From positions 32,001 through 96,000 of IMG/VR virus record IMGVR_UViG_2816332320_000003: 64,000 bases of DNA, one strand, 5' to 3'. This document shows, one piece after another, positions 1 to 61,925 of this stretch. Within the stretch, counting starts at the first letter, position 1; each line of letters begins with the position of its first letter. The notes under the pieces are model-generated. The model saw only the letters and a program-made list of their open reading frames with translations, searched no databases and had not been told where the DNA came from. A program made the translations under genes and the position numbers. This stretch comes from a virus. Its lineage: Duplodnaviria; Caudoviricetes.

Positions 1-580
1 CCAAATTCATCTTTTTCGTACCTTTTTGCGTAGACACTACCTTTATAGACTAATGATTCAGTAAACCCTTTCGGTGTTATGGTCTTTGTGAAAGAATTCA
101 TATCTCTATCCTCCATTTTTCAAAATGTGCGTTATCGATTTACGTTAAACTTTTTTATAATTTTATTTTTAATCACTTCAAGTAAACCTTTGTTCGATAC
201 ATTCTTCAAGGTAGCAGCCTGTTTTCGTCTTCTTGCCTCTCCCATTAGATAACCTCCCTCAATTTATAACCCTATGAAATTTGAGTTTTATTTAGTCTTA
301 TATTCAGGAAGTACAGTTTTCAAAGTCTCAATTATGTATCTCACTGGATCATTTGTACTTCGGATATGTGTGTCGATTTCTCTCAATGCTTCAAGATATC
401 TATTCTTATCATTGTGTAATTCATCTAAATAATCATCACCTTTAAGCTTTGAAGGTAAAGTAAATGACCAGCATTCACCACTGAAGATTTGACCACCCGC
501 CCTCCATCCAATAAAATCAACTCCCTTCCTTAAAAAATTTGGGTTTGATCGAGAAAGCCTTGAATAGTAAGTTTAAGTTA

Positions 581-817
581 TTAACCTTCTATTTCGGTAA
601 ATGGATTTACTTGGTCAATACAATCTTGAATATTCTCATACCATTTACCATCATTCAAACCCTTACTGTATTCAAAATAATCCCTGATCGATTCATAGCC
701 ATCATTCAAATCTCCATTTTCCCACGTAACATCTTGCAGCCAGTCCAGTTCTATCATTACGACTTCATCATAGTCATCTCTTTTAAAAACTACTGTATTT
801 TGTTTTGTGAGTTTCAT
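581..817 (-). CDS. Hypothetical phage protein
   Basis: 78-aa acidic ORF with GAGGTG RBS. Confidence 0.7.
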   Translation of the reverse strand: MKLTKQNTVVFKRDDYDEVVMIELDWLQDVTWENGDLNDGYESIRDYFEYSKGLNDGKWYENIQDCIDQVNPFTEIEG

Positions 818-854
818 TCAATTCACCTCAATTATTTTGTTTAAAACATCTCTT

Positions 855-1436
855 TTATTCGATTTGCTCCCAATGCATGATATTGGACAATCTATTCCAT
901 TTTTTATTGTGTTTTTCTTTCATATAGAAGCACAGCCAGACCATTTCAAGTGAATCTGTAAATAAGTTATACTCAGCCACAGTTTCAATGTAATCTATAA
1001 ATGCTTTAATTTTACTTTTGTATGTTAAACCAATTAAGAACATATCTAGATACTGATCCTGTCGGGGCAACCACACTTTCTCTGCTGTAGAACCACATTC
1101 ATGTTTGTGTTTATAGATACCTGAGAAACCATCCTTCGTCATGACATGGCAGGACGTACTATTTATCACATTCCCTAACCCTAGAACACTACTATGTCCT
1201 CCATAGAACCAATGGGTACCACCGATTGATTCACTGTAATCATATTTACCTGAAATCACAAATGTGTTTGCCATCTTAGCACAATCTAAACACATTTGTG
1301 ATTCGCTACAACTACCTTCTTCACAGTAACTCGATCTAGTTGAGATGTAATCGCCAACCTGCACTCTCCATATATTTTGTAATTCTACTGCCTTTTGACA
1401 CATCACTCTGTAGTATGGTGAAACATCCATTTGCAC
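855..1436 (-). CDS. Hypothetical phage protein (WLPRQDQ motif)
   Basis: 193 aa with GGAGGTG RBS; stop codon lies inside the 841-858 repeat arm. Confidence 0.75.
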   Translation of the reverse strand: MQMDVSPYYRVMCQKAVELQNIWRVQVGDYISTRSSYCEEGSCSESQMCLDCAKMANTFVISGKYDYSESIGGTHWFYGGHSSVLGLGNVINSTSCHVMTKDGFSGIYKHKHECGSTAEKVWLPRQDQYLDMFLIGLTYKSKIKAFIDYIETVAEYNLFTDSLEMVWLCFYMKEKHNKKWNRLSNIMHWEQIE

Positions 1437-1444
1437 ACCTCCTT

Positions 1445-1684
1445 TTAGTCAAGTTTTCTTTTATTAAGTTTATCTTTTAACCATAGAACACCTATAGACC
1501 CAATCGCCAACGATATAATCAAAATCATCAGAAACGCAACTACGTTTATGTGACCATATCCAGTAAAGTAAGATATTACTCCACTGACTGTCATAATGAC
1601 CAAGGAAAAGATAACACTGTCTAGCTTAAACAGTTCCTTTAGATCTTTTCTGGAAAGTTTCCAGCTTGATTTCCGAACTGACAA
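1445..1684 (-). CDS. Small membrane protein (2 TM)
   Basis: Two hydrophobic stretches. Confidence 0.7.
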   Translation of the reverse strand: MSVRKSSWKLSRKDLKELFKLDSVIFSLVIMTVSGVISYFTGYGHINVVAFLMILIISLAIGSIGVLWLKDKLNKRKLD

Positions 1685-2985: not shown

Positions 2986-4716
2986 TTACTCTTTATTTTC
3001 CGATTTTTTCTTTGATTTTCTATTTGATATCCCCAAGAAATCATTCAAACGCTTCCTAGCTACATCAATATAGTATTGTCTGTCAAGATAATCAGGTACA
3101 CTTTCACCAAGTATGACCTCATTATTAATAAAGCACTTCTCTGGAGTGTTAGCAATCTTCTCGATCCGTTCTTCTGTCTTAACCTTGAAAACACCATTTG
3201 CGTCTTCTTGATTAGAAGCAAAGACGCGCAATACCTTTTCAGGTAATTTTTCTTCACCATGTAGTGCATGTTTATACTTACTTGATACCTTTACTACCTT
3301 TTGGAACTCTCTCAATTCATTACATGAATTGATTGTATCTTCAATTTCAATACCCTTGGTAAAGTAATCAATCAGGGCTTTGTTTACAATGGGCAGATCA
3401 TAATCAAGGTTATTTAACTTTTTAACATATGCGCCTTTTGATTTGAACTTCCCATTTTTATCAATGATAATGTAGTTGTTTACATCTTTCTGATAAATTT
3501 TGTCAAACACTTCCCATTCTAACTCTAAACGAGTACGCTGCTCCCATTCTTTTGCTACTTCTTTAATGACTTCAATATCTTCTTCTTTATTTACTTTCAT
3601 AAAGATACCATCAGTATTCGATTGAATTAATTTTCCGTATGGTTCAATTTTCTCGATTAAGTCAAGCAACAACAATTGACCAGCTACACAAACATTATTA
3701 GCCATTAATGGGTCATATAATGCATTGAATTGATCCTTCATCGCTCCATATGTAGAGTTCAAAACGATTTTATAAGGTGCTTGTTTGGGATCTTTCTTAC
3801 GTTTAAGATCCAATCGAGTGTCCCTAATTTCGGTGTACTTGAGTGGTTCTTTTACGTTTCTACTAATGAAACCATATTCTATCATAATGGAAGGATATAG
3901 ACTGGCTACATCGCAACACAGAATAATACCTTCATCCTTGTATTTTGGAATAGCCCCGTGAATTCCTCCCCAAGCGAAAATATGTGGAACTTCAGCCACT
4001 TCAATCTTTAGACTCTTCTTATAATCCATATTTTCTTCATTTTTATACCAATCAACAATGTGCTTGTACTTATCTATTTTCAACGTATCTGGTAATATCA
4101 ATTTAAATTCATCTTCTCGATCAGGTTGTTTTTCCGCATCAAGAATGTGAGCTGATAATTGTGCTTTTGTTTTGTTAAATAGTGACATGTTCAAATTAAA
4201 CGCATCAATCAATGCCAGTTGACTATCGAATTCCTCTTGTCTGTTATCAAAAACCTCAATTGTCTGAAGAACATCATACTTACAATATTTCACAACCTCT
4301 TCAATTTCTTCCTTTGTCAAGGGGCGATCTAAATCGAAACTCACAGATGATTCTTTAATTTTACTCCCCATAAACCCCTCAAGCTGCTTCAAACTATGGA
4401 AACCAGTTGTAATGTCAAAATTGTTAAAGGGAATCGTGTACGCTTTTTTTACTATGTTATGACCTTTAATTCCTTCTTGAATGAGTTTATTACTGACAAA
4501 GTAAGGATCATATCCAAGCAACAATCCCTTAAATATGTATTGGTCATACTGTCTACTGTTGTATCCAATGAAAACATCATACTTAAAATACTCATAGAAT
4601 CTTCTTAACATATCAACATCATTGATAATTAGCTTTCCCTTTTTACTTTCATAATCAACTAATACCACTAACCATAGATGCTTATAGACCTCGAAATCAT
4701 AGAATATTTTTCTCAT
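2986..4716 (-). CDS. Phage DNA polymerase, family B, with 3'-5' exonuclease
   Basis: Exo motifs YDFEV, GYNSRQYD and YCKYDV; polymerase motifs DVASLYPS, KIVLNSTYG and SNTDG. Confidence 0.92.
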   Translation of the reverse strand: MRKIFYDFEVYKHLWLVVLVDYESKKGKLIINDVDMLRRFYEYFKYDVFIGYNSRQYDQYIFKGLLLGYDPYFVSNKLIQEGIKGHNIVKKAYTIPFNNFDITTGFHSLKQLEGFMGSKIKESSVSFDLDRPLTKEEIEEVVKYCKYDVLQTIEVFDNRQEEFDSQLALIDAFNLNMSLFNKTKAQLSAHILDAEKQPDREDEFKLILPDTLKIDKYKHIVDWYKNEENMDYKKSLKIEVAEVPHIFAWGGIHGAIPKYKDEGIILCCDVASLYPSIMIEYGFISRNVKEPLKYTEIRDTRLDLKRKKDPKQAPYKIVLNSTYGAMKDQFNALYDPLMANNVCVAGQLLLLDLIEKIEPYGKLIQSNTDGIFMKVNKEEDIEVIKEVAKEWEQRTRLELEWEVFDKIYQKDVNNYIIIDKNGKFKSKGAYVKKLNNLDYDLPIVNKALIDYFTKGIEIEDTINSCNELREFQKVVKVSSKYKHALHGEEKLPEKVLRVFASNQEDANGVFKVKTEERIEKIANTPEKCFINNEVILGESVPDYLDRQYYIDVARKRLNDFLGISNRKSKKKSENKE

Positions 4717-5371
4717 CTTCGATATACCTCTTATTGATAAATTTTTTATTCAAAGGCTCAGTTAGAGCAGCTTGTTCACTCCATCCTCTTTGTAATCTAC
4801 TTTGAACTGTTTGATAATTTACTTTGAATACTTCGCACCATTCGACTAATGTTTTTGTAATACCATCAATCTCAACAGTACGATTACTTCTTCTATTGAT
4901 ACTTTGTTCTTTAATTGTACTCCATTTGCAATTTAACGGTTCATAATTACCATTTACATTTAACCTGTCGATTGTCAGTCCATCAGAATAACCATTTTCA
5001 ATCGCCTAATTATAAAATATGAGAAAGCCATCTTCCTGTAACCACACTTTGCAAATTTTTATTCCCCTACCACCGTAAGAATGATAATGCGTTGCGTTTG
5101 GGTTGTAACATCTTGTAATCATATTATGATAAATACTGTATAACCTGCTACTTTTCATACCATGTGTTGTGTTTTCTTTAATCCTCAATTCACTCTTATA
5201 ACATCCACATGAATTTACTTTACCACTTCTCAAATCTCCACCTGTTATTTCTTTTAAGTTACCGCATTCACACTGACAAAGGAACAAAACCGCTCCTCTT
5301 TTTCTTCCAACTTCTTTTGTTACGGTTAACCGTCCGTAGACATTTCCAACTTCATTTTTAGGTCTTACCAA
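4697..5371 (-). pseudogene. HNH homing endonuclease interrupted by an in-frame TAG
   Basis: YGGRGIKIC...FYN*AIENGYSDGLTIDRLNVNGNYEPLNCKW continues in frame to TGA at 4697; the TAG at 5006-5008 sits where the family has Trp. Confidence 0.85.
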
Positions 5372-5382
5372 GTAAACACATC

Positions 5383-6453
5383 CTAGCTAAATAAGTCGAA
5401 ACCATCTTTCTTCGTTTTCTTATCGAATTTATTAGCATTCTCATCCAAATATTGTTTGTAATACTTACACGTTTTCCTATGTCCACAAAGAACACTACAG
5501 TAAAAAGAGTTTTTACTATCTATCTCAACAGCAATCCATTCACTTTCTTCCTCAATATTTTTACTTTCAATTTCTTTTATCGTATCAATTATGTATTCTT
5601 TGAATTCGTTGATCCTTTCTTCAGTAATTTCATACTCAACAATACAATCTTCCAACCAATACTTACCACGAACCTCATTTGGTAAACAATTTATATTGTT
5701 ATCCTGCACTGCCTTATCGAGTAAAAGTTCAATCTCAAACGTTTCCATTTGTAACTTCAACAAGTCTTTTTCTAACGAATCTCTCATTTCTTTCACCCAC
5801 TTACCTCTGTTGCACATCTTTTTCTTAACCTTGCTTTTGCCATTTGAGCATACATATATGTATTTGATCATAAACCATGCTACTTTATTTACTTTAAAGT
5901 TTGACGTACTTTCCAATCCAACCTTATACATCAGTAATTGTCTACCAGCCTCAGTTAATTTTTTTCCTGTAAATTTGCTCGATGTCTTCCAGTCAAGAAT
6001 ATCAATGTACGGTTTACCTAGTTCACTTGGAGAAATTGAATCAATATATCCCTGCATCCAAATCCCATCAGATATTTCAAATATAATATGTTTCTCAAGC
6101 AGCATCTTTTTATCCATCTTTTTAAAATTCTCATAGAAATGATTCACATCAGCAACCCAACTAGCCTTAATCTTATCATTTGGGAAGTTGATTCCAAGAA
6201 GTTCAAGTTCAGTGAGTTTGTTATAGTATTTATTTTTAAATGTATCTTCATTTTGTTCTCCAGAATATATTAATTCAATTCCATTGTGAATAGTCGAACC
6301 TAATAATGTATAGCAATTCTCTATCCCTTTATTTTTTAATATATATGTATTGTAATACTCATACTGGCAATTATTGAATGTACCTAGTTTAGAGAATGAG
6401 TAAACTTTAAAACCTTTAGCAATTAGATCTTCTACTGTAACAACTGTCAACAT
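5383..6453 (-). CDS. PD-(D/E)XK (RecB/Cas4-like) nuclease
   Basis: SFSKL..F..C N-terminus, GYID, ILDWKTS and QLLMY motifs, C-terminal C-x3-C-x5-C cluster; start moved to the RBS-preceded Met. Confidence 0.85.
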   Translation of the reverse strand: MLTVVTVEDLIAKGFKVYSFSKLGTFNNCQYEYYNTYILKNKGIENCYTLLGSTIHNGIELIYSGEQNEDTFKNKYYNKLTELELLGINFPNDKIKASWVADVNHFYENFKKMDKKMLLEKHIIFEISDGIWMQGYIDSISPSELGKPYIDILDWKTSSKFTGKKLTEAGRQLLMYKVGLESTSNFKVNKVAWFMIKYIYVCSNGKSKVKKKMCNRGKWVKEMRDSLEKDLLKLQMETFEIELLLDKAVQDNNINCLPNEVRGKYWLEDCIVEYEITEERINEFKEYIIDTIKEIESKNIEEESEWIAVEIDSKNSFYCSVLCGHRKTCKYYKQYLDENANKFDKKTKKDGFDLFS

Positions 6454-6464
6454 ATCCTCTCCCT

Positions 6465-7484
6465 TTAAATCCATCTTGTACAGTTCTTGATTAATAACTT
6501 TAATGTATTAACATCTACATCAGCAGGAGCTAGTTTGCTTTCCTTTGGTAAATACATGTTGTTTGAGTCGTAAATATAACCAACTTGATTTCTGTAGAAC
6601 CTATCTGATTTCAGTTTTACGGCTAATTCATAGCTCTGCTCTTCGTCTAATCCTTCATCTAACATGATTATTGCCTTTTGTGGAAACATTGCTTTTATGT
6701 GATTGGATTGTAATTCACTCAAGTTGCACCCACCTAATCCAATACCAACATTCAACCCTTTACTAGCAAGTAATAGAGTATGTTTTTCAGATTCACCAAT
6801 CAAGACAATTCCTTTTTCTTGTATTGATTGGTAATTAGCAGCATATCCATATAACGTTTTTGACTTTGGAAATGGGATAACTGGATACCATTTCGATTCA
6901 TCTGGATGTGTATTTCTCCTATTTAACCTTCCCATGACCCCACATAATCTTCCATCAAAACTATACCATGGAACTGTTATTCTGCATGATAGACTATCAT
7001 AACCAATCTTAAATTTCTCTTGTATTTGCGGTAAAATACCATCCTCATAAAATAACATGTTTGGTAGTATCTCAAACTGATCAAGTATTTCGTCAGTGTA
7101 TGTTTCAATATCTAAAGCATTGTCATTTTTCATTCTAGATATTTTTTTATAATATCCACCAAACGGCAATGTAATTTTACTTTCTGGTATATCAGTATTC
7201 TTGTATTGAACAATATCGGCAATATAATTTAAGGTTTTAGTAAAAGATAAACCTGATTTTCCCTGAATAAGTGTAATTAGATCGCCCTTCAGATTGGATG
7301 AAAATATACTGGAGGACAAATTCTTTATGTTCACCTTAACTGCTGTTGGATTACTGTCTGTATCTTTCGCACATCTGTATTCATCGTTATGACGTTTTAT
7401 CTTATGAAATCCTGATTTTTCAAGAATCAACTCAATTAGTTCTGGATTACCAATGATGTAATTTTTAAGTCCAAACACATCCAT
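6465..7484 (-). CDS. DNA primase (TOPRIM; SPbeta YorJ-like)
   Basis: RITVPW, GVMGR, LYGY, IGESEK and MLDEGLD motifs; directly after the helicase. Confidence 0.85.
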   Translation of the reverse strand: MDVFGLKNYIIGNPELIELILEKSGFHKIKRHNDEYRCAKDTDSNPTAVKVNIKNLSSSIFSSNLKGDLITLIQGKSGLSFTKTLNYIADIVQYKNTDIPESKITLPFGGYYKKISRMKNDNALDIETYTDEILDQFEILPNMLFYEDGILPQIQEKFKIGYDSLSCRITVPWYSFDGRLCGVMGRLNRRNTHPDESKWYPVIPFPKSKTLYGYAANYQSIQEKGIVLIGESEKHTLLLASKGLNVGIGLGGCNLSELQSNHIKAMFPQKAIIMLDEGLDEEQSYELAVKLKSDRFYRNQVGYIYDSNNMYLPKESKLAPADVDVNTLKLLIKNCTRWI

Positions 7485-7492
7485 ACAATCGC

Positions 7493-8962
7493 CTACCTTT
7501 GATGCTTCGGTGTACAGTAACCCAACTCAATCCATTTATTCCATGATCCATCGAATTGATACAACAGCACATTCTCACCTTCATCATTTCTCGTTTTGTC
7601 CAAGAAAATGAGCCTATACTTTTTCTCAGGATTTAATAAAATCTCTTCTTTGATTTTTGTAAACTTACCATTTGAATCTTTCTTAAATCTGTATGGTTTA
7701 ATATCATACTTTTCATTTGGCATTTCATCATCCCAAACCGATCTTGTCAATACGAGTTCTGAGACCACTTCTTTAACACCTTTTGCATTTGACAAGCACG
7801 ATGCAGTTAAGTATCTAGTATTTTCCATGTAAATAGCAAGTTGCATGGTGATAATAATTCCAACATTCTCTTTTTCTGCAACTTGTAGTAGTTGCTTCGA
7901 TGCTTCGATGAGTTCACCTGTCACTGTTGTAGAAGCAGCATCTTCAGCTTTGAAGGTATCGTACAGCGCATATCCAAATCCCTGTTTAGCCATTTTTCTA
8001 ATGATCTTCTTCACATCTTCGATACTGTAATCATAGATCTTTGCAAATTTCAATCTGCCTTTGTAATGCTTATTATAGTATTCCTTAGCTTCTTTCATTT
8101 TTTGAAGTTGTTCGTCATTCATGTTTCCCATTTTTTGCTTTTTACGTGGAAGTCCAAAATACTCTAACTTATGACTAAGAATCGTTGCCATTAGAATATG
8201 CTGCCATGCTTTTTTATTCATCTCATTCGCAATGATTACCACGCTCTCCCCCTGATCTAAGATGGGGAGTATGTATGAATTAATACAAAAACTTGTCTTC
8301 CCTATTCCAGAGAAACCAGCAAAGATTTTTACATTTGATTTATGAAGTCCCAATGTATGAAAGTTCAATAATGGACACGCACTAGCATAACTCAATCCCA
8401 TTTCTTCACCAGCATTGCACGAATTGATGAAATCATCATCAATATCTAAATCTTCGATCTTAACGCCAGCACCTCTACTCAGAAAGATGTTATCTAACTG
8501 ATATTCAAAATAATTGTACAACTGTACACTCGTCATCTTTTTAAACTTATCCAACTCAGTAATAACATTAAAACCTTTATCAGTGAGTTTAAGTAACATA
8601 TTATTCTTAACTAGTTCATCGTAATAACGGTCAACGTTCTCTTCGTTTAGGATGCGTTTAATCTCATCAACAGTCCTGTAACCGCCCCGTCTCTCAAAAC
8701 CATTTTTCAATGTCTCTTTATCTTCCACATAACTGTAAATACTTGCATCATCAAAGCTTTTATAACCTAGTTTGTACATTTCATATCCAAGTGAAAAGTA
8801 AAAACGACCATCTTCAGTTAACAAGTCTCTGTCTGCCCTGACTTCTTTTTCATAATCAGCGTATAAATCTGGATTTTTCCATAAACAAAATATAAAGTTT
8901 GCTTCAATCATTTCTCTATTTTGAACTAACTTGTTGTCATAGTTATCCAATGAATGCATCAC
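7493..8962 (-). CDS. Replicative DnaB-like helicase (SPbeta YorI-like)
   Basis: Walker A AGFSGIGKTS, IIANEM, YDTFK, TMQL and DKTR motifs. Confidence 0.9.
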   Translation of the reverse strand: MMHSLDNYDNKLVQNREMIEANFIFCLWKNPDLYADYEKEVRADRDLLTEDGRFYFSLGYEMYKLGYKSFDDASIYSYVEDKETLKNGFERRGGYRTVDEIKRILNEENVDRYYDELVKNNMLLKLTDKGFNVITELDKFKKMTSVQLYNYFEYQLDNIFLSRGAGVKIEDLDIDDDFINSCNAGEEMGLSYASACPLLNFHTLGLHKSNVKIFAGFSGIGKTSFCINSYILPILDQGESVVIIANEMNKKAWQHILMATILSHKLEYFGLPRKKQKMGNMNDEQLQKMKEAKEYYNKHYKGRLKFAKIYDYSIEDVKKIIRKMAKQGFGYALYDTFKAEDAASTTVTGELIEASKQLLQVAEKENVGIIITMQLAIYMENTRYLTASCLSNAKGVKEVVSELVLTRSVWDDEMPNEKYDIKPYRFKKDSNGKFTKIKEEILLNPEKKYRLIFLDKTRNDEGENVLLYQFDGSWNKWIELGYCTPKHQR

Positions 8963-9492
8963 ATGTCCTCCTCATCTAGGAAGTCTAGAATTCCAGTATT
9001 GTCTTTTTTATTTGTTACTACGTCATCAATACCGTTAATCAATAAATCAATGGAAGAGGAATCTTGTTTTGTTTCTAGTTTCACACGATGCTTCCATTTG
9101 TTAAATACATCATTGATCCTACTCTCAATGATCCTCATTACATAACTAACCATTCCATACTCATTTTTGAATTGTTTATTTTTAGTCCAATACTGGATAT
9201 CATCCTTACAAGTAATGAAGCATTCATGTATGACTTCGTAGTTATAGAATTGGTTTAGTGTATTGATTTTCTTAATCAGAACTGGAGGAATGATTTGTCC
9301 TTCTTCATATTGAAACACTTCCAATGCTATGTATTTAAACAAAGTCTCTTTGCTAAATTTATTGATCATGAAAGCATCATACTCATCTTGACTACAATAG
9401 TACTTTTTCTTTCCTTTCTCATCAGCAACACAATAGTATAAGTCAGTGGTTCCCTTCTTATTACAAATCTTACAAACACATTTTCTCCCCAT
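8959..9492 (-). CDS. SPbeta YorH-like protein (CxxC...YYCS), possible helicase loader
   Basis: Cys motif, and position between the AAA ATPase and the helicase. Confidence 0.65.
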   Translation of the reverse strand: MGRKCVCKICNKKGTTDLYYCVADEKGKKKYYCSQDEYDAFMINKFSKETLFKYIALEVFQYEEGQIIPPVLIKKINTLNQFYNYEVIHECFITCKDDIQYWTKNKQFKNEYGMVSYVMRIIESRINDVFNKWKHRVKLETKQDSSSIDLLINGIDDVVTNKKDNTGILDFLDEEDM

Positions 9493-9555
9493 TCATTCAC
9501 CTTCAATATATTTAATAAAGGGGAATGAATACTTCCACTCCCCCTTGTGTAATAT

Positions 9556-10674
9556 TTATTTCAAAAGGTTAACTATTTTTCTCAGTGCTACTGTTGGAGT
9601 TTCTTCTGTATCCTTCAATGATGTAAATTGATATTCACTCATAATTTCTTTAATTTTTAATTTAATTTCATCTGATGCACTGTTAAATTTGTTTTTAATC
9701 TCGTCTGTCAGTTTTTCATTCTCAACAACATCAACAAAGTTGATCAGGGCTTTTTTACTTGCAATTTCAATTTCTTGCTCTTTGGTCTTCTTTTGTTCGA
9801 TACGCACTTCTTCAATACTCGAAGTGTTACCTTTTTGCTGATCAAATGCTTTTTTGATCGCATCTTCAATCGCATTGATGAATGAGTCTGTTTCCAACGG
9901 AGCTGAAGGAATGATATCTGAGAATCTGGATTTAGAATCAATGTTAAAATTATCATCACGGAAAGTAATTATACGAGATTCATCGACCACAGAACCAACC
10001 TTCTTAGCTGTTCCAACTTTCTGTTTAACTGTTACTTGCTCAATTTGTCTGTTAATGGATGCAACACCAAGGACATGAAGTTTAGTTTTGATTGCGTTGA
10101 AGTAACGGTGTGACATATTCGTTGTGAGCATGTCGTATTCTAGACCAGTCACAACATCTGTCATGGTACGTTTCTTCGTATGTCCGAGAACAAACATTGA
10201 AACACCTACTTTTTTCAATGCCCAAATCTTATCGAGAATCAGTTCAATTACTTTATCTTCACCAGCCATAAATCCACCGAAGGCAGCTTTGATTGATTTC
10301 GTTTTCTTATCTGGATATTCTTTATTATGTAGACGAATTACTTCAGGTTCAGTAATCTTAACCAATTCATCAAAAGTATCGTAAACAAGAACTTTCAAAT
10401 CTTTATAATCTGTATTCCGATGTGCAATGATATCATTTGTAATTTCATCAAATGTTGACCAATCTGGAACGTTTTCATATGTTGCATTCGGGATGGCATC
10501 GATACCATCCTCTTTTCCGATATTCAGAATCATGTAACCATCTTCACCAACAAGTTTTTCACAAACTTCTTTGGAGAGGGTTGTTTTACCAATGCCAGAT
10601 TCTCCAATTAAACCCAAGTTATATTCAAGTGGATTAACTTTGATTATATTCTTCTTACCAAATTTCTTAGCCAA
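9556..10674 (-). CDS. AAA/P-loop ATPase (SPbeta YorG-like, Sak4-type)
   Basis: GESGIGKTT, VYDTFD, AFGGF and LGH motifs. Confidence 0.85.
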   Translation of the reverse strand: MAKKFGKKNIIKVNPLEYNLGLIGESGIGKTTLSKEVCEKLVGEDGYMILNIGKEDGIDAIPNATYENVPDWSTFDEITNDIIAHRNTDYKDLKVLVYDTFDELVKITEPEVIRLHNKEYPDKKTKSIKAAFGGFMAGEDKVIELILDKIWALKKVGVSMFVLGHTKKRTMTDVVTGLEYDMLTTNMSHRYFNAIKTKLHVLGVASINRQIEQVTVKQKVGTAKKVGSVVDESRIITFRDDNFNIDSKSRFSDIIPSAPLETDSFINAIEDAIKKAFDQQKGNTSSIEEVRIEQKKTKEQEIEIASKKALINFVDVVENEKLTDEIKNKFNSASDEIKLKIKEIMSEYQFTSLKDTEETPTVALRKIVNLLK

Positions 10675-10716
10675 TCAGAAACAACTCCTATGTATTTTTT
10701 AAATTTAATTCTTTAA

Positions 10717-11961
10717 TTAAGCAAATAGATCATCCAACTCGATATCTACTTTTTTAGTTTCTTTCGGTGTATCGTTATTTGGCGCTTCGGTTGGCTTTTC
10801 CTCTTGCGAGTTAAAAACATAGACTAGTTCGTCTTCTTCATACAAGGAGAGCACTGCTCCATTGATGAAATTATTATCACCATTGATCTCTTGTAAGATT
10901 GGTTTTACAAGACGGTTCTCTTCTTTTGTCTCACCTAGAGTACCGTTCTTAGGTGCAAAGTCCTCCAACTTGTTGTAACCAAATTCCACGGCTTCCTTCT
11001 GTTGTGGGGTCAACTGTTCGAACGTGAATTCAACCTGATCCGCACCTCTAAAGATGTTTACAATCCATGGCAGATGATATACGCCTTTATCTGTTACTTT
11101 AAACTTGTTCTTCAAAAACTCAAGTCGTTTGACATGCATCTCATTGTCCATGTCTACTTTACTTGCATTAATAATAAATTGTTGAGGGTAAAACATATCT
11201 TTCTTGACCTTCTTGTCGTAACTAATTACATAACCACCAATGTAAATCTTCTTTTCCTTTTCAAAATCAACTTCATCCAGTGCATCTTTAGTAAAGAAGA
11301 TGTCAAATGTTGCTCGAAGTTGGGATGGAGTATCTGATGGTACAATTTCAATAACTTCAGGTTTGAATTTGCGATTAAACTTCCCTTTGTATTCACTATA
11401 TTCTGCTTGTCCAGTAATTTTGAACTTATATGCTTTAAAGTTCTCAAGATTTGATGAAAGAAACTCAACAGCATCATATTCATGAATAAATTCATACCGA
11501 TCTGGTACTTTTTGTTTCAATTCCTCTTTCAATTCTTTCAATTTCTCTATTTCTTCTGGTGTTTTCTCATCTTTATATTCAATTGCTCTGATTTCATAGC
11601 GCAATTTTCCTGATGCTTCTTTAACAGCTTCATCGGTTGTGAAGTCAACGACAATCTTCTTAAAATCAGCAACCATGTCAATCGTCTCTGGATTCAAACG
11701 ATCTTCCCATGGGATCTCAAGTTTAGATCCTTTTTCGTTTTCAGTACCTTTACCAAATGTTATGACATTATTCTTTTTACTTTGGAAAAAGCCACCATAC
11801 ATTTCAACATAAACACTGTTAGTCTTTGATTCTTGCACTGCAAAATTCAGTCTATGCCCTTCCCAACCACTGGCACTGACATTAACCTCATGGAACTTGT
11901 CTTTACTCTTTGGTGTTTGAATATTACCAATAAACTCGAATGTATTGTAAAGTCTGCTCAT
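10717..11961 (-). CDS. SPbeta YorF-like protein, putative ssDNA-binding
   Basis: NTFEFIGN start and acidic tail DIELDDLFA; first gene of the replication operon. Confidence 0.65.
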   Translation of the reverse strand: MSRLYNTFEFIGNIQTPKSKDKFHEVNVSASGWEGHRLNFAVQESKTNSVYVEMYGGFFQSKKNNVITFGKGTENEKGSKLEIPWEDRLNPETIDMVADFKKIVVDFTTDEAVKEASGKLRYEIRAIEYKDEKTPEEIEKLKELKEELKQKVPDRYEFIHEYDAVEFLSSNLENFKAYKFKITGQAEYSEYKGKFNRKFKPEVIEIVPSDTPSQLRATFDIFFTKDALDEVDFEKEKKIYIGGYVISYDKKVKKDMFYPQQFIINASKVDMDNEMHVKRLEFLKNKFKVTDKGVYHLPWIVNIFRGADQVEFTFEQLTPQQKEAVEFGYNKLEDFAPKNGTLGETKEENRLVKPILQEINGDNNFINGAVLSLYEEDELVYVFNSQEEKPTEAPNNDTPKETKKVDIELDDLFA

Positions 11962-12813: not shown

Positions 12814-13066
12814 CTACCTCATCCTCCCTATATTTTTATCTGTATATTTAGTTTAAACTTGCTCTAGTACCTCAAGATATTCAGAGATAATTTGCAATTT
12901 ATCGTCCCAGATCCCATTCGTATTACCGTCTTTAAAGATGTTATACATACCTGTTAAAACGTGATGGGGGTGTAATTCAACTTTCCGTAAACACTCAATC
13001 AGTAGTTCTTCCTCTGTATATTTTTCCATGGTTCAATCCTCCCCTTCTAATCAAATCAACTTTTTA

Positions 13067-14825: not shown

Positions 14826-15022
14826 CTAGACTCCTCACCTTTCCTATAAAATAAATTTTTGATCGTATTTATTTTTCTGCAACTTCTTCAAGAACAATCA
14901 TATATCTCAAGAACCTTTTCAAATCATCAATGCTTTCAGCACTTTCTAGCCATCCAAGCAGGGTGTCTTTATCTTTTTGTGTTAACGACACATTTTCACC
15001 TTCTCCCGATGAAAGCAAGTTT

Positions 15023-16134: not shown

Positions 16135-16174
16135 CTAGTTGCACCTCTCTCAATAAAAGTAGTTTTTTATCAAG

Positions 16175-32377: not shown

Positions 32378-32378
32378 T

Positions 32379-45431: not shown

Positions 45432-45460
45432 AGTCCATGCCTCCTAATGAAAACGATATT

Positions 45461-47919: not shown

Positions 47920-48072
47920 TGTTAATACCTCTCCTTCATTTTCAAATTACCTTCTTATTGCAATAACCATCTCTCAAACCCTTTATTTGTTATCCAACGA
48001 AGCATTGCTCTTCCGTTGAATGACAAATACATTCCTCCATTCATATTCTTATCAAATCTTGTTTTCATTTGA

Positions 48073-48965: not shown

Positions 48966-49248
48966 TTATCTTCATCCTTTCAAATCTTCATTTCATTCAA
49001 AGTTTTCATTGTAAAAACGTATTAACTTCTCCATTCCCTCCTTCGTTAACGTAAACGAATATTGTTGCTCTTGTCCTTTGTTCTGATAGTGAAAGCTTAT
49101 GGTGTTTTGAGCAACTACGGAATCTACATGAATAACAGCGTCAACCGTTGTGTCCGAATCAAATACATCGTGTTCATGATGATTTAACCTTAATATCAAA
49201 TCAGCCATTTGTCTGTCCCCTTTCAAATGAAAACCATCTTTTATTCCA

Positions 49249-49605: not shown

Positions 49606-49640
49606 AAAAACTGCATCCCTTTCCGAATCAAAATCTTCTT

Positions 49641-50174
49641 TTATCGAACTGTTATTTCATATGTACCTGTCCACTGCCCCTTGGTATAAGTACCATTCAT
49701 AAACAGTGGCATTTTGAATGGTACTTTATCTCCATCATTAGCTCGAACATACTGTGAACCTGTCCCAGCAACTTCTCCATTCGTGTTGTAAAGAACTACA
49801 TCAATGGTAGTTCCCATAATGCCAGCCTTAGTAATTTCTGCTGTGCCTGTTATCTTTGAGCCTATACCATCAATTTGTATATTAACGTTGCTAAAATTCG
49901 CACTAACTGGAGTAGCTGCTACCTGCTGATAATACTGTTGCTGCTGAAGGGTTTGCTGGGCAAGAACCGCCTGAAGTTCAGCATCTTGTTTTTGAGATTG
50001 TTCCATACTGATCCAGCCAAAGTTAGAATCAAATCGCTCTGTTTCATTTGTGAAGAGATTGGTTCTGTATGTGTGGTTCCCAATCTTCTCTTGTTTCCAT
50101 TGATTCATCCAAGCATAAGTGCCAATTCCTAATAATAAGACACTCGAAATCACCACGAGACTAATCTTCTTCAT
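49641..50174 (-). CDS. Membrane-anchored or secreted protein with a C-terminal beta (FxLYD-like) domain
   Basis: N-terminal TM segment, Gln-rich linker, VLYNTNGEV. Confidence 0.6.
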   Translation of the reverse strand: MKKISLVVISSVLLLGIGTYAWMNQWKQEKIGNHTYRTNLFTNETERFDSNFGWISMEQSQKQDAELQAVLAQQTLQQQQYYQQVAATPVSANFSNVNIQIDGIGSKITGTAEITKAGIMGTTIDVVLYNTNGEVAGTGSQYVRANDGDKVPFKMPLFMNGTYTKGQWTGTYEITVR

Positions 50175-50806: not shown

Positions 50807-51323
50807 TCCTTTTATGCAAGTTCAGTTTTCATTTTCTCAATCTTATTTTCTATACTTTGTAGAGCCTGATTGCGCCCTTCGATTACTCCCTGTTCTAATC
50901 CCTCACCATAAGCTCTATGTAGATCCATAAAAATTGAATTACGTAAGCCAACATCTGACATGTCTAAGCCCTTCTCTTCAAGTCTAGCTATTAATGTACG
51001 TGCAATCTCATTTGCTGCATTCATTTAATGAAATTCTCCTTTTATTCTTTGTTCTAATAATCAACTGCCGAATTTTAAACTAAATTCCATTGACATCTTT
51101 TTTAAAAACTTCTTCCTATCTTCTGTTTCATCTGCAAATGGAAAAATTAAAATACATTCCTCTTGCTTTGTCTTTATTTCAACTCCATACTCTTGCATGA
51201 AACACGCTTCAAGCTCCACTCTTTTGTGGTGACAAGAGAAGTGAGTTGGCTTATGCTGACAGTTAAAATCTCTACATGAAAAAATCAAGTTCTTGTCACC
51301 ACATTCCCGATAAAGTATTGATT

Positions 51324-51866: not shown

Positions 51867-52048
51867 TCCCGATCAAATTAGACTTTAATCCAATTCCTCA
51901 ATATCTCCTTCGAGATATTCTTCATTAAAAGCCTCACCACAATTTAAGCATTTCCATTTACTGAGTCCTTCTTCGATCAACGATTCTTTTCCACATGCTG
52001 GGCATTCTCTGTCTCCCATATTTACTATCCTTTCTTATAAGAGCATTT

Positions 52049-54283: not shown

Positions 54284-54763
54284 GTGTAATTACCCCTTTT
54301 CATTTAAATCACGTTTCTATTTGAACTAGTGAGCTATGATGAAGTTCGTCTTAGGATACCATCCAATTGAACCATCTTCAAAATCTATGCAATAAGTATC
54401 TACACACTCATCAATAACAGCATAACTTTCACCTAGCTCTACTTTTGATTTCTTGAAATTACTATGTGGTTGCTCAACACATTTTACCCGCATTGCACGA
54501 TCACCTGTCCCATGAGAAAGTCTCTTATAATTGCTTAAATAGATCATTCATCTCTAATTTAAATGTCCCCAATAACTTTTGGTACTCTGGAGATTCTCTT
54601 TCAAGTTCTGTTAATTGAAAGTCAGGCTTATCAGACCCTGCCCACATACTTTGAAATACATTCTTATGATACCATTGACCCTTGTCATCCTCTAAATAGT
54701 GTCCATTAGATGCTCTATAGATATTAATCATTGATATCCTCTTTCCTATATAAAATCACATTT

Positions 54764-55186
54764 TTATTCAAAAGTTATTTCTTCAAAATCCAAGTTATTA
54801 TCTTTCAACTTAGCCCACACTACTTTCAATTCCTCGTCAGTGATAAACCCCCTGTCTGCGTTATTAATTATCACATTAAACAATAAAGCTTCGTCCAAGT
54901 TGTAATCCTCATCATAGATTGAGTCAATGTCGGTCTCATTTGAACCAAAATGATATGTTCCTGCACCATAAATAATCATTCTACCAGTGTCTTCTATTCC
55001 CCAATCTTTCGCCCCATAATCCGAAAAACACATTGCTTGTGGGTCTGTTTTTGACAACCAAAGAGCCTTTATTTCTTGTCCGTTTGCTTTCATTTTGACA
55101 GTGTACAGTGAACCATACTTACCATTGACTTTGAACCATTTGCCATCAGCAATCGTATCTAAAAATTCTTGTTTGGTCATATCCAT
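54764..55186 (-). CDS. Hypothetical protein
   Basis: 140 aa between repeats 54750 and 55194. Confidence 0.7.
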   Translation of the reverse strand: MDMTKQEFLDTIADGKWFKVNGKYGSLYTVKMKANGQEIKALWLSKTDPQAMCFSDYGAKDWGIEDTGRMIIYGAGTYHFGSNETDIDSIYDEDYNLDEALLFNVIINNADRGFITDEELKVVWAKLKDNNLDFEEITFE

Positions 55187-55568
55187 TCTCCTTATAAAAT
55201 AAGTCTTTTATTATCTTGTGCAGCACGTTAATGCAAGTAATTTGCTTCTTGGTGTTTTAGGGTTATTAATTTTACTAAAAATCTGTTCTAATCTGTCGAT
55301 TTGCCTAGTAATTAATGCATTAACAATTCCTCTTGGAATGTAAACTTTCTCAATTTCAACCCAGAAAGTATTGTCCTCCAAGCTGTCTAACGACTTCCAT
55401 TCTTTAAAGTGTCCTCTTGAATTGTCTTTGTAGATAACAACCACTGGGAAGCTTGAACCTAGAGCCTCAATATAAAAATCTAAGAATTCCTTTTTTAGGC
55501 TTCCTTTGAATGAATAAAGAAATCCCTCAAATTCAGATGATTCAAATTTTATTTCTTTCATGATTTCA

Positions 55569-56351: not shown

Positions 56352-56768
56352 TTAGATTGCCAAACATCCAACCTTATTTGTTTTCATTTTCTTATTTTTA
56401 ATTGCTAAAAAATCTTGAGGTGTAATTAAGCTCAAACTTACCTCTAAAGCTTCATTTACGTCTTCCATGGTTTTAAAATTCAAAGTTGCCACTTTACGAG
56501 ACAATCGTTGTTTATCAATTGTTCTAATCTGCTCTAGTAGAATAACACTATCTTTTTCGATGTCATAATCTTTCGCGCTAATTTCAACATGAGTTGGCTG
56601 TCTTCCCTTCGAAATTTGAGAAGTAATTGCCGCAACAATCACCGTTGGGCCAAATTTGTTTCCAATGTCATTTTGGATGATAAGGACTGGTCTGTTACCA
56701 CCTTGCTCACTTCCTACAACTGGAGAAAGGTCAGCTAAGTAGATCTCCCCTCGATATACTGGCTTCAA
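56352..56768 (-). CDS. mazF: MazF/PemK endoribonuclease (EndoA-like)
   Basis: [32 protein letters not shown]...[13 protein letters not shown], close to B. subtilis EndoA. Confidence 0.93.
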
Positions 56769-57280: not shown

Positions 57281-57292
57281 GAACGTTTGTTC
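57281..57292. promoter_or_regulatory. LexA (SOS) box
   Basis: GAAC-GTTT-GTTC. Confidence 0.75.
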
Positions 57293-57384
57293 GTTTGTTC
57301 TTATATTATGCTACCAGTTAAGGAAAGATGCAAGCAAAAAAGACTTCGCTCTTTTTGGCAAAGTCTTCTAATGAAATGCGTATT

Positions 57385-58335
57385 TTATTTAGTCATGATC
57401 TGACCAAGAAGAGATGCAACTTGTTCTTGAATGTTTGAGGCTACAAGGCTGCCTGTAATCCCTTCTGAAATATTTCTTACAGATTTTAAGGTCTCTGCAA
57501 TTACATTTAACTTTGGCTTTGGTGATTTAACTTGCAATTCTAATACACCAATGTCTGATTCTAGAATTTCTTTCTGTTCCGTGTCATGTACTTCTTTAGA
57601 CATTTTTTTAAGACTTTCAATTAAATGATTTAAGTCGCTCATTTTAATTGAAGAAGTCATTGTGTTAGTTTGGGTTGAATTTTCTGTATGTTGTTGTAAC
57701 TGAATGTTGCCCCCAGATGAGTTAAAGATATTGTTGTTTGTGATAATTTGAGCTGTACTCTTTGCCGCAGTTTCTTCATCTCTCTTTGAAAAGGACATTC
57801 CTTCGCCCAAAACTCCATCCTCCTCTAGTTTTAAACTCCAATTTAGTACAATGGCTCTTACTGCTTCAATAATTTTTTGAAATTGAGATGCAGTAATGTC
57901 TAATTTGCATACCATTGGAAACTCCATATACTTCATAAGATACTCTTGTGTCTTATCTGGGAAGTTCATTTGCAAATAACCTGTTTTAGTTTGTCCTAAC
58001 AAATGCTCGATTTCGCCAACTGAAATATTTATCTTTCGAACAGTTAGTGATTGAGACAATTTTTCGTCTGAAAAAATTGCAGGTATATTTAACCCATTAT
58101 ACGGATTTTTAGCTGTCACTACCCCTCTAATTTCCCGATAGTCAGGTAAACTGTCCAAGGAACCCTTATACCCATTTAGTTCATTGTTAATCCATGCTTC
58201 AAAATCACGAACTTTCAATTTTTTCGCGACCATTAAAGCCTTTCTCAAAAGATCGTTAATCTTACATTTTCCGTCTACTGCTTCTCTTTGAAGTTCTAAA
58301 ACTAGTGAAATGCTGATCCCCCCTTTTTGTCCCAT
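57385..58335 (-). CDS. AbiTii-domain protein (putative anti-phage defence)
   Basis: LVLELQREA...LLRKALMVAKKL...W.NNELNGY...PDYR..RG. Confidence 0.8.
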   Translation of the reverse strand: MGQKGGISISLVLELQREAVDGKCKINDLLRKALMVAKKLKVRDFEAWINNELNGYKGSLDSLPDYREIRGVVTAKNPYNGLNIPAIFSDEKLSQSLTVRKINISVGEIEHLLGQTKTGYLQMNFPDKTQEYLMKYMEFPMVCKLDITASQFQKIIEAVRAIVLNWSLKLEEDGVLGEGMSFSKRDEETAAKSTAQIITNNNIFNSSGGNIQLQQHTENSTQTNTMTSSIKMSDLNHLIESLKKMSKEVHDTEQKEILESDIGVLELQVKSPKPKLNVIAETLKSVRNISEGITGSLVASNIQEQVASLLGQIMTK

Positions 58336-58393
58336 TTCATTCTACGGTATAAATACCATATCAAAATTTGACTATTTAAATCAATTGTCTCTT

Positions 58394-58777
58394 TTATTGA
58401 AAACACTCAGTGTAAAAGTACTCCTCACCCGTTAACGGATCAATGAAAGATTCTTTCTCATAATACGGTCTATAATCATAATCATTTGTTGAGCCTTCAT
58501 GCTTGCAAAATGCATCGATGCACCACAATGGAAACCCAGACATTGCATGTGTAAACCTAATGACCCTAACGCCAGTGATTTTTCGCTTGAATAGAGCCGA
58601 TGCAAATCGAATCATTTCTTCATCTTGAACCCTATGCCATTCATCACAATTCATATTGATACTAATATGCTTCACTGCTGCTGACCATTGTTCACTGTTA
58701 ATTCTGTCAGTATAAACACTAGTTATGTAGTCGCCTTTATAGTAATTTCGCGGGAAATTCACTTGGGCAATTAACAT
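58394..58777 (-). CDS. Hypothetical protein
   Basis: 127 aa; stop inside a repeat arm. Confidence 0.6.
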   Translation of the reverse strand: MLIAQVNFPRNYYKGDYITSVYTDRINSEQWSAAVKHISINMNCDEWHRVQDEEMIRFASALFKRKITGVRVIRFTHAMSGFPLWCIDAFCKHEGSTNDYDYRPYYEKESFIDPLTGEEYFYTECFQ

Positions 58778-59342
58778 GTTTTGAATGCCATATGGATTCG
58801 TCCAAAATTGATTGATATCATAAGCCTTTACCTTTGTAGTGTCATATCAAATCATTTTCTCACTCCCTATAAAAATAACGAATTTATTGAAACTGGTACA
58901 GTTTTATTTCCTTTGGTGCAATTACCGTTCCATCTTTAGTGAGCAACTTTATTGTCAATTTATCATCCAACACATTTTCGATGATACCTAAATCTCCCAT
59001 AGCTACAGGGAAATAACCTTTATCACCAACTGGGATTCGTATATCTTCAAGAAACATCACTTTATCGCCTGTATTCAATTTGATACCCTCCTTATCGTTA
59101 AAATCAGACTTGTATTCAGTTTTGATCAGCTAGACGCTGCCATGAAATAATCTGGGTCTTTACCTCAATTACTCCTCTACTTTTGTCTGCGTAATGTTCA
59201 TCTATCTTCATTAGATCTCTTTCAGTAAGAATTTCATTATCTGTTCTATAATAAATATTAGAAAAGATTCCTGTGTCGTTATGTCTAAGAACAACATAAA
59301 AGGTATACATCGCTATCATCCTTTTCCAATAAATCTATGCTT

Positions 59343-59825
59343 TCATTGTGATAAGAGTTTATTTCGCACATTCACAATTCTTCTTTCAATAATTTCTATA
59401 TGCTCATCCAATGACTTCCCAGATTCAATTACATCGATAAGTCCCCAGTAAATCTCTTCTGATAAACTTGTGAGTTCATATTCAATTTGTCCAACCTGTT
59501 GGCGTATTTGTGAGTAAGAAATGTCCTCTTTATTGAGTCTCTCTGTTAAATGCTGTACTCTTTGCCTGACATTCACTAATAACACTTCCTTTTTAATCAA
59601 ATTTTTACAATCACTTATTTTTACATGTTTGTATTTGCTATTGCCCAACCTCACTACCTCAAACATCATGTCGCCAATGTTATACCTATATCTCCCTTTT
59701 CCGTCCACTCTGGTTATGCCTTCAGCCAATTGAGAGATGTAGTTGATATTATTGGATATGCATACCTCTTCCCAAATAAACGCCGTATCGTTTATTAACT
59801 GTACGTACTTGAATAGTTTGTACAT
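59343..59825 (-). CDS. Hypothetical protein
   Basis: 160 aa with RBS. Confidence 0.6.
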   Translation of the reverse strand: MYKLFKYVQLINDTAFIWEEVCISNNINYISQLAEGITRVDGKGRYRYNIGDMMFEVVRLGNSKYKHVKISDCKNLIKKEVLLVNVRQRVQHLTERLNKEDISYSQIRQQVGQIEYELTSLSEEIYWGLIDVIESGKSLDEHIEIIERRIVNVRNKLLSQ

Positions 59826-61925
59826 CTATCTCACCTTAAACTCTAAATGTCTATCGGGAAATGCTTCGCTTTGAATTCTTGATACTCTTGTTTGACTGGT
59901 TCAAACCTTTGAGAGAGGAATGAATATGACGAAATACAATGTTTCCCGTAGAAATCCATTGCCTCAACAATTGTCTGATATTCATGCTTTAACATGTTTT
60001 GTGTAGTTTTCACAGTCTCTTTTTCATGTAAATCCATAGTTCTTCTAATACCTTCAATGTGTAATGTGATACCTGTGTATAAACATGAGCTAACTCCAGC
60101 AGGAACAATCAACATCTATTAAACACCCTTTCCAAATAATTATTTTATTCATTCTTTCAGTATGTAATCCTCATGATTGTCACTATAGATGAACTGTCCT
60201 TCACAAACGTTAATAACTCCATGCCATGTTTCTGTATGTTTGCGAATATCCTCAATGCTTGCTAGCTTCAATCCTAGATTGTTAAACGTTCCGTAGATCT
60301 GACCAATTTGATTCCTGTAAACATAGACATCTCTCGAATCCATTTGATCACCTCATTCCATGAAATTTTACTTTATTTGGTTTCTGTGTATAACTTGCAG
60401 CATTCAACGCGAATTCCTTTATAGCCTGTTTCTGTCTTCACAAAATACATATCCCAAGTTTTTGCATGTACATCGAACATTTGACCGATACGATTTTTGT
60501 ACCAACTTTCATCATTCAAACAGGCTGTTACTTGTACCCGCATTTTTCCTCTTCCTTTCTTAATCAAATTCCACTTTTATTGAGTTATACCAATCAAGTT
60601 TTATTTAATATATTTATTCAAGCCTATTTCATTTCTCTCCCCTTACTATCAATCTTAGCTCCAAGTTTTCTATAAAGCTCTAAATTTGTTGGTATCTTAA
60701 ATTGATCTCTTGAGAAGATCGGTGTAACTTCTCCAAAGCTGGATGAAATTGAACCACCAGAAATGTGGTATACATCTCCATCCCATAGCTGTATGTATCC
60801 CCAATGACCATGGTAATGTGATTCCTTGTCTTTGATAACGATTAGCTTCCCGATCATCTTCTCTGGGTTCATTTTCAAATCCTCCTTTCAACATCCAATT
60901 TGCCCTACACTGGAAGCATTCCTTCTTTGTTTGTTGAGATCCACTTTGATACAACTTTTACTGTTCCTCTTCTTCAAGTTCCTGAAGTAACTTCAAATAA
61001 ATCTCTTTAGCTTTCTTTGGTTTAGTGGCAAGTACTACAATCATTTCACTTTCTCCATCGATATCATCAGGTTCAGTTGTAGTCATGGCAGCTATACCTT
61101 CTTCTGTAAACCGTTTGAGTAATTCGTCTACTGTTTCACTGTGATAAAATGAACCAATTCGATGATACAAGTTCATCAACTCCATTTCCCAATCAAATCT
61201 CAATTTTATATAGAGTATTATTTTAATTATTATGTAATCCACATATGTATAATTTGCATATGTGGATTACAAATCAGGAAGTGTGCAAACAGCCTGTTTC
61301 TTTGTCAAAAATCCAACTATAACCATACTCTCGACTATCAATTAGTTGAATATCACCCTCGTAATATCCACTGTTAATTTTAATGGTAATTACGTCTTCC
61401 AGCAAAACGTGTGGATCTTCTTTAAGAAGGTTTTGCAGTCTATCGATACATTCATCAACAACTTTATTTACAGCTTTATCACCTATAGTATCTGGTAACA
61501 TTGCTCGAAATTTATTAAAAACAGCATTCTTTAAATTCAAATTTGCTCCTCCTCAAATATCGCATATGTGTATCTGCATGTTCATATTAGCAAGATAAAC
61601 TCTATTTTGTCACCTGTTTTCTCTTCCCTCATTCTACTGAAACATCCCTATAAGTCTACTTATTCAAAGGTTCATGTATGTCACAATAAAGTCAGTAACA
61701 TTCTATTTCGCTCTCTTTGCAAATTCACTTGTCCATACAAACTTATCAGTATGATTTGAAGTTCTTATAAACCCCTGACCACTGCATTCCCAGCCTTCTG
61801 ATTCCATACTTTTCACATGCTCATTTCTTTCCTCTTCAGATTCATAATGAAATCCTATCTTTGTGTACTCAAGTACTTTCTTCATTTTCATCATCTCCCC
61901 ATCAAAGGATCATTTTATGGGGATA

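Follow-up and report, generated by a model that had tools for sequence, protein, structure and literature searches.

In the modular theory of phage evolution, put forward by Botstein in 1980 and tied to the lambdoid phages, short conserved linkers at module borders were proposed as guides of exchange. The idea is about forty years old, and few concrete and testable examples of it are known beyond those of the T4-type phages, the promoter-early stem-loop (PeSL) cassettes (Arbiol et al. 2010, PMC2839356; Comeau et al. 2014, PMC4122927). Here we consider a repeated element in a phage genome of 163,172 bp (IMG/VR record IMGVR_UViG_2816332320_000003), of which bases 32001–96000, 64,000 nucleotides, form the window analysed in this work; coordinates refer to this window unless stated otherwise. 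The element is an 18-bp dyad, ATNAAA-N6-TTTNAT, that recurs between genes and that an earlier reading of the letters alone (hereafter the original prediction) took for the punctuation of integron-like gene-cassette arrays. We read the dyad as a phage-specific site, probably protein-bound, that serves modules of accessory genes as a common linker for their exchange, and would put the probability of this reading at about one half.

The dyad is strongly over-represented. The window contains 31 exact matches against 0.92 ± 0.86 expected from dinucleotide-preserving shuffles (the largest shuffle value being 4), so the claimed enrichment over AT content and chance withstood this control. All 26 exact positions listed in the original prediction are among these matches, and the copies starting at 9841, 18369, 33495, 40464 and 62239 come in addition; the matches at 9841–9858 (within the gene 9556–10674) and 33495–33512 (within a TubZ-like gene), both found by the pattern scan, are intragenic and may be due to chance. 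In the whole genome 54 copies with the 6-bp spacer were counted vs 0–5 at each other spacer length from 0 to 15, and 48 of them lie in the 0–112 kb arm, the genes of which are on the minus strand, the late genes at 112–163 kb being on the plus strand. The symmetry extends beyond the original pattern. The arms grow by one symmetric base (A at position 0, T at position 19) and the variable arm base obeys a symmetric rule, being rarely T at position 3 and rarely A at position 16, which gives an extended consensus of (A)ATVAAA-N6-TTTBAT(T). With up to one mismatch allowed, our gene calls place 54 sites of the window at junctions, 27 exact and 27 near-copies, in good agreement with the roughly 50 motif-bearing junctions announced; some 4–5 of the 27 near-copies are estimated to be chance matches. 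The exact copies at 40660 and 48051 were scored as coding by the gene caller, yet they look junctional.

The gene content places the phage, as a distant relation, in the SPbeta-like group, since homologues of YopR, YopQ, YonO and YopP as well as AimR-like and TubZ-like proteins were found. Its YonO polymerase, encoded outside the window, is 51% identical to that of SPbeta, the presence of this polymerase being confirmed in these two phages only. Among named phages, Geobacillus virus E3 and Psychrobacillus phage Perkons come closest, with a YopR identity of 37–38%, and Megablast of the window, E3 and Perkons against the phage collection returned no close relatives. Comparison with other genomes showed that the motif is not restricted to this phage: it is a trait of the SPbeta-like group as a whole. 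At the 6-bp spacer there are 15 copies in 41 kb of E3 (0–4 at other spacers), 20 in Perkons (0–4) and 14 in SPbeta (1–6), 13 of the latter being ATAAAA-N6-TTTTAT; phi3T is also a carrier, and the closest relative of our phage, G9 (136 kb), has 35 copies. In 52 IMG/VR loci surrounding genes of YopR homologues the pooled counts at spacers from 2 to 10 were 24, 26, 16, 16, 186, 47, 23, 26 and 33, and in 37 of these 52 loci the spacer of 6 had the highest count. Whole records yielded 81, 43, 15, 9 and 0 copies vs 0–3 for the reversed control. The motif was further found in prophages of Paenibacillus, Metabacillus and B. pseudomycoides, while three host chromosomes of 5–7 Mb contained 24–98 copies vs 20–52 in the control; this control-level frequency rules out a site for a host factor. 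Judged by these counts, the element is specific to large SPbeta-like siphoviruses infecting Bacillales, namely those with the sro genes (YopP/YopQ/YopR). An invention of the immediate lineage had been suspected from contigs that lack the motif and have a 75–79% identical DNA polymerase, and was discarded because these contigs share the replication module only. In the E3 locus two exact dyads, at 35064 and 35080, overlap by two bases (…TTTCATGAAA…) and may represent an empty slot between two sites.

The linker reading is carried mainly by the position of mosaic breakpoints. Clusters of related loci were compared all against all at unique co-directional junctions with gaps of 25–150 nt. At least one homology breakpoint was present at 138 of 185 junctions with the motif vs 94 of 235 motif-less ones (odds ratio 4.4, P = 1e-12), and the enrichment was strongest in the SPbeta cluster (72/75 vs 30/71). 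The events are concentrated at the borders of the site: homology starts peak at −1 to +1 of the motif (66 events), and homology ends at +16 to +18 (78 events) and at the Shine–Dalgarno sequence or start codon, whereas breakpoints in motif-less gaps are more evenly spread. The coincidence of gene gain, loss and replacement breakpoints with the motif, the absence of which would have spoken against the original prediction, was thus found in the relatives; the breakpoints lie on the outer borders of the site, however, and not inside the 6-bp spacer as had been supposed. Positions 3–13 contain almost none of them, and in or at the spacer there are about seven homology-end events and one homology-start event. 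Where both flanks are homologous, the identity jump across motif junctions is twice that at other junctions (P = 2e-4). In one indel family everything between two motif copies has been removed and a single copy left. The site itself, together with its own spacer, is retained in relatives while either neighbour changes, and orthologous sites keep their spacers, which disagrees with a site that travels with its cassette as attC does. This evidence for module borders comes from relatives; for the phage itself it derives from one distant relative, G9. In that comparison the motif is present at 0 of 11 conserved adjacencies and at 48 of 111 non-conserved ones, and two islands of 41 and 49 bp, comprising motif, leader and Shine–Dalgarno sequence, have been kept amid unrelated flanks.

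As had been noted from the letters, copies lie between the end of one gene and the ribosome-binding site (RBS) of the next: seen on the coding strand, the motif closely follows the upstream stop codon or overlaps it, and the Shine–Dalgarno sequence comes a few bases later. The space between dyad and Shine–Dalgarno sequence often holds an A-rich stretch that includes CTAAAAATA or AACTA (sites 18024, 27410 and 40464; Perkons sites). The placement of the stop codon at bases 2–4 of the arm is a real feature, but the number of such sites was somewhat overstated, 17 junction sites rather than about 19 being found when upstream open reading frames (ORFs) of at least 30 codons ending at these bases are counted. 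An embedded stop would in any case be expected, TAA and TGA being part of ATAAAA and ATGAAA. Among 40 junction sites of Perkons (deposited gene calls) there are 17 in which the motif begins 3 nt inside the stop codon, a register seen even with 35–446 nt to the following start; overall the distance to the next start ranges from 4 to 446 nt. The Perkons gaps of 25–60 nt hold the motif in 23 of 38 cases, and gaps shorter than 25 nt never do. The motif is tied to gene ends and intergenic space generally and not to translation starts, since the copy at 57371 precedes a terminator-like hairpin, and some SPbeta copies are found at convergent and divergent junctions and some in the late cluster.

The motif does delimit single accessory genes, as the original prediction held, and inside the replication operon (2986–11961) there is not one junction copy, in line with the earlier observation. 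The exact bracketing of foreign cargo was confirmed in part. The three-gene TGT block has exact dyads at its two edges (13050–13067 and 14846–14863) and the deaminase gene is enclosed by the exact copy at its upstream border (23452–23469, with the stop codon in the arm) and the near-copy at 22252, while the TnpB gene is bracketed only loosely, by the near-copies at 27117 and 25785.

We next turn to what the site may be. Covariation was absent at positions 3/16, in eight flank pairs and in the spacer pairs (this phage and two sets of relatives), the folding energies of most sites were near those of shuffles and Rfam contained no family match; a hairpin, a terminator or a known RNA family is ruled out by these results. 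The symmetry of the site without covariation argues for double-stranded DNA that is read by a protein and not for a hairpin. A sigma-A promoter was rejected as well, as no conserved hexamers occur at a fixed distance up- or downstream and the promoter scan stayed below shuffle level. The same applies to a promoter of the YonO polymerase, which uses a single start site upstream of yonK, where there is no dyad.

Under the linker reading, a phage-encoded protein would bind the dyad, probably as a dimer as the symmetry suggests, and recombination, either by short homology or at the stalled protein, would swap, insert or delete whole ORFs at the dyad. The site may serve as a linker because the dyad, with the leader and Shine–Dalgarno sequence that follow, is the one sequence common to otherwise unrelated junctions; it would stay in place with its own spacer as the ORFs that adjoin it give way to others. 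The most natural candidate binder is a YopP/SroD-like integrase-fold protein, given the geometry of the dyad and the reading of A-tracts by this fold.

Several observations weigh against this reading. The 10–12 conserved bases are short for homologous recombination, and the binding of the dyad by a protein is something that we infer from sequence, the binder being a predicted one. The small E3 cluster showed no enrichment of breakpoints (10/32 vs 9/30). Only 7 of 55 clean indels have the motif at both ends, and 21 of 55 have it at neither. The documented replacement that leads from phi3T to phi3Ts has no dyads at its ends and was dropped as a test case for this reason. The junction test is confounded, both by the location of the motif junctions in variable regions and by the lack of independence between related loci. 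Finally, position 12, the last base of the spacer, is A on the coding strand in 28 of 48 sites without a symmetric T partner, which hints at a possible strand-specific component.

A possible, although in our opinion doubtful, alternative is that the dyad serves chiefly in regulation, as an operator or silencing site, at which a protein of the sro module would shut or insulate the genes at each accessory-gene border, recombination being a by-product of the repetition. The candidates would be a dimer of the YopP/SroD-like integrase-fold protein, encoded outside the window at 110866–111903 (−) of the genome, or the YopQ/SroE homologue (35766–37169, −; sequence and profile search), which has a weak DndB-like match and could be a DndB/ParB-like binder; a search for solved structures of YopQ- and YopP-like proteins gave none. 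Dimers of the integrase fold classically leave a footprint of inverted arms around 6 bp. The YopP homologues of this phage and SPbeta match the canonical Phage_integrase domain profile and have an altered active site: they retain the first Arg as well as the His and the Tyr, while Lys replaces the second catalytic Arg, with HSLK or HSFK (read by eye) where tyrosine recombinases have HxxR, a conserved non-canonical arrangement. Presence of a YopP homologue and of the motif agreed in five of five records (four with both and one with neither), a correlation that is weak evidence and is confounded by phylogeny. The concentration of the motif in the early arm would also suit an operator. Operators, however, are needed at promoters and not past every stop codon, and neither the lack of the motif at all conserved adjacencies nor the SPbeta copies at convergent junctions and in the late cluster would be expected of them.

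The known operator of this phage family is a different element. The YopR/MrpR/SroF homologue of our phage (34748–35773, −; PDB 8BJ6/8A0A at E 1e-31, Pfam MrpR_N_CB and MrpR_C_cat above cut-off) belongs to a family of master repressors with a tyrosine-recombinase fold. SroE and SroF are said to bind many sites on the phage genome, a point in favour of the operator reading. The core of the SPbeta SPBRE, as we derived it from ten target regions identified by ChAP-seq (the sequencing of chromatin obtained by affinity purification), is AATATGTATA, located inside TAGACA...TATAAT promoters. The SPbeta MrpR binds SPBRE at about ten promoters, and its ChAP-seq gave SPBRE only (PMC10516654), a point against the operator reading. 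In phi3T, SroF binds as a monomer to a 26-bp asymmetric box that holds two TTTTAT hexamers, and the SroF fold reads A-tracts (bioRxiv 10.1101/2025.11.27.690993), which speaks for it. That the dyad is the SPBRE/SroF operator is ruled out, since the two differ in sequence and symmetry as well as in copy number and position. A box of its own that resembles SPBRE, with the repeat AATAACTAAAAATATATTGTAAAAT, is in fact present at 40433–40457 (−), kept with G9 upstream of an AimR-like gene; further copies with three mismatches occur at 2951–2975 and 62316–62340, and the core AACTAAAAATA has seven copies in the genome. This repeat is probably the SPBRE/SroF box of our phage within early promoters. An exact dyad (40464–40481, pattern scan) lies directly upstream of the box of the AimR-like gene and, with the copy at 40660–40677 (pattern scan), brackets an ORF of 49 codons.

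It is unlikely, to our mind, that swapping is a dedicated protein-directed process in which a dyad-bound factor, be it YopP/SroD with its Arg-to-Lys site or a nuclease, breaks and rejoins DNA at the edges of the site. If this were true, any ORF between two sites would be a replaceable slot, in a manner distinct both from integrons and from PeSL-type homologous exchange.

Somewhat less likely still is the integron-like system of the original prediction, in which a recombinase would recognise the dyads and excise or insert the genes between them. Core-site geometry, the bracketing of single genes, the base-resolution coincidence of the relatives' breakpoints with the sites and the indel family that leaves a single site all fit such a system. 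So does the gene 27424–27846 (140 codons), which is flanked by dyads at 27410–27427 and 27866–27883 with near-identical spacers (AGATAC and GATACT); G9 has a single dyad copy with the spacer of this pair, which is the only one of its kind that we found. Of the capture-and-shuffle idea the exchange borders at the motif stand and the integron-style recombination is not supported, because exchange within the spacer, matching spacers of partner sites and an active enzyme are predicted and none was seen. The events in or at the spacer (about seven and one) are to be compared with 78 and 66 at the outer edges. Shared spacers, the canonical sign of recombinase insertion, were rejected, as adjacent sites agree in 1.87 of 6 spacer bases vs 1.60 for random pairs. 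The site remains with the backbone, it cannot be folded as attC can, and its symmetric arms confer no orientation, yet the genes are all co-oriented. The recombinase that had been placed outside the window did not appear either: MrpR-family and YopP-like folds were the only ones seen, and no intact enzyme, in a genome of which not every ORF was profiled. No IntI-like enzyme was found, the YopP-like protein, as read by eye, is without the second catalytic Arg, and the YopR-like protein belongs to a repressor family; SPbeta MrpR retains three of seven catalytic residues and has no recombinase activity, which the family is reported to have lost (PMC10516654).

We regard as improbable an RNA-level signal on polycistronic early transcripts, such as a processing site, a protein-binding site that controls the next cistron or an aid to termination–reinitiation. 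The position between stop codon and RBS, the fixed-register stop in about one third of the sites, the coding-strand bias at position 12 and the conservation of leader and Shine–Dalgarno sequence with the motif in the two islands would suit it, but no covariation accompanies the symmetry, any predicted stem is negligible, the spacing to the following start codon varies widely, copies occur before terminators and at the convergent and divergent junctions of SPbeta, and the embedded stop follows from the composition of the arms. A selfish REP-like miniature palindromic repeat, spread by a transposase in trans and without a role for the phage, is very improbable: the repeat is intergenic, palindromic, multicopy and placed just past genes, and IS200/IS605 genes exist in this phage (TnpB, 25906–27117) and in E3, but it measures only 18 bp, has a free spacer and forms no hairpin; its conservation extends over phages of psychrophiles, mesophiles and thermophiles, among them SPbeta, in the record of which no IS200/IS605 gene is listed, and its spacers are kept at orthologous sites.

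The remaining sites of the window were located by the pattern scan together with gene calls unless indicated. The upstream stop codon lies in the arm of the exact dyads at 274–291, 2749–2766, 15009–15026 (TGA), 45447–45464, 49627–49644, 54750–54767 and 57371–57388, the last being followed by the terminator-like hairpin and by no RBS, and also in that of 27410–27427, which genome comparison places within the 41-bp island 27386–27426 kept with G9 between unrelated flanks. Other exact junction dyads are at 2562–2579, 16153–16170, 16451–16468, 18369–18386 (pattern scan), 23711–23728, 44968–44985, 49227–49244, 51028–51045, 51872–51889, 55194–55211, 60563–60580, 61192–61209 and 62239–62256. The copy at 18024–18041 (pattern scan) is followed by CTAAAAATATA, that at 48051–48068 (pattern scan) is 7 nt past the upstream stop, and the palindrome at 61901–61918 is lengthened by the flanks CCCC/GGGG (pattern scan and folding). 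The one-mismatch junction copies, spanning 532–60377, start at 532, 841, 10607, 12139, 21336, 22252, 24109, 24943, 25785, 27117, 27369, 27866, 28806, 31971, 37893, 38802, 42980, 43102, 43866, 44050, 44336, 45196, 45934, 48979, 58380, 59329 and 60360.

Some neighbouring genes deserve mention. Two AimR-like proteins of about 445 amino acids with helix-turn-helix and tetratricopeptide repeat regions are encoded at 29167–30492 (−) and 39029–40375 (−), so that the phage may possess two arbitrium-type receptors. A small gene (33148–33420, +) followed by a TubZ/PhuZ-like tubulin gene (33441–34562, +), on the strand opposite to all neighbours, resembles a TubR–TubZ partition pair, which suggests that the prophage is plasmid-like; no match to a SprA-type integrase was obtained in the genome. 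Inside the sro operon a protein with homing-endonuclease-associated repeats (PF18780; 37224–37841, −) is 85% identical in G9 and has no SPbeta match. The TnpB (IS605 OrfB) gene, on the minus strand, is 63% identical to one of several E3 copies, and the MazF/PemK-type gene (56352–56768, −), 61% identical to Perkons ORF37, forms its own dyad-free unit in both phages. The replication module consists of eight genes (polymerase, exonuclease, primase, helicase and others) with 55–88% amino acid identity to IMG/VR contigs that have no other gene in common with the phage and lack the dyad, and is a clean mosaic block. For two cassette proteins no IMG/VR relatives were found.

If the linker reading is correct, the dyad may explain the turnover of the many small anti-host and defence genes in these phages of 130–180 kb. 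It can be examined directly in Bacillus subtilis, because SPbeta and phi3T carry it, and annotators of these genomes may use it as a marker of gene borders. In phi3Ts–SPbeta hybrids (Dragos et al.) the one non-homologous joint, following yosA, falls within some 100 bp of the dyad at SPBc2 116414. A formal description of the dyad was missing, as had been supposed, from the searchable literature on SPbeta, phi3T, E3 and Perkons; in the SPBc2 record two copies are annotated merely as stem-loops.

In comparison with known systems, the closest analogue is, as far as the likeness extends, the PeSL of T4-type phages and not the integron. PeSL and dyad alike are short, conserved and intergenic and recur between ORFan genes that are non-essential, the ends of indels and replacements between relatives fall at the element, and both are thought to be exchange points between unrelated sequences. 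A PeSL, however, comprises a sigma-70 promoter and a terminator hairpin, the activities of which were shown, and its mini-circles were detected, whereas the dyad has neither promoter hexamers at a fixed distance nor a stable stem, consists of 10–12 fixed bases around a free 6-bp spacer and resides in another group of hosts, the Bacillales siphoviruses. With attC the dyad shares the promoterless single-gene arrays and a repeat at the 3′ end of the gene that often includes the stop codon, but attC is 57–141 bp long, folds as a single strand, travels with the cassette and is cut in its core by IntI, while the dyad is 18 bp, unfolded and retained by the backbone, with breakpoints at its outer edges and no IntI found. 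The core sites of tyrosine recombinases (dif, loxP) have the same two inverted arms and 6-bp centre; in the dyad, partner sites do not share spacers, exchanges are not in the spacer, the arms are just 6–7 bp and the recombinase-fold proteins at hand are of repressor type. SPBRE likewise recurs between genes in this family of phages, is A/T-rich, has an integrase-fold protein as its reader and contains TTTTAT in its phi3T version, but is asymmetric, 15–26 bp long, monomer-bound and situated in about ten early promoters (PMC10516654; bioRxiv 10.1101/2025.11.27.690993). The REP/RAYT systems differ from the dyad, which has no hairpin and for which no RAYT was seen. The linkers of the modular theory are also short conserved border sequences, but they are not known to have been defined as one strict motif with dozens of copies per genome. 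The dyad is such a motif, 18 bp long, found alike in phages whose Bacillales hosts are psychrophilic, mesophilic or thermophilic, and situated at base-precise mosaic borders. The repeat-mediated module border is known as a kind; the motif itself, its form as a strict dyad, the breadth of its occurrence in the group and the edge-precise breakpoints are new.

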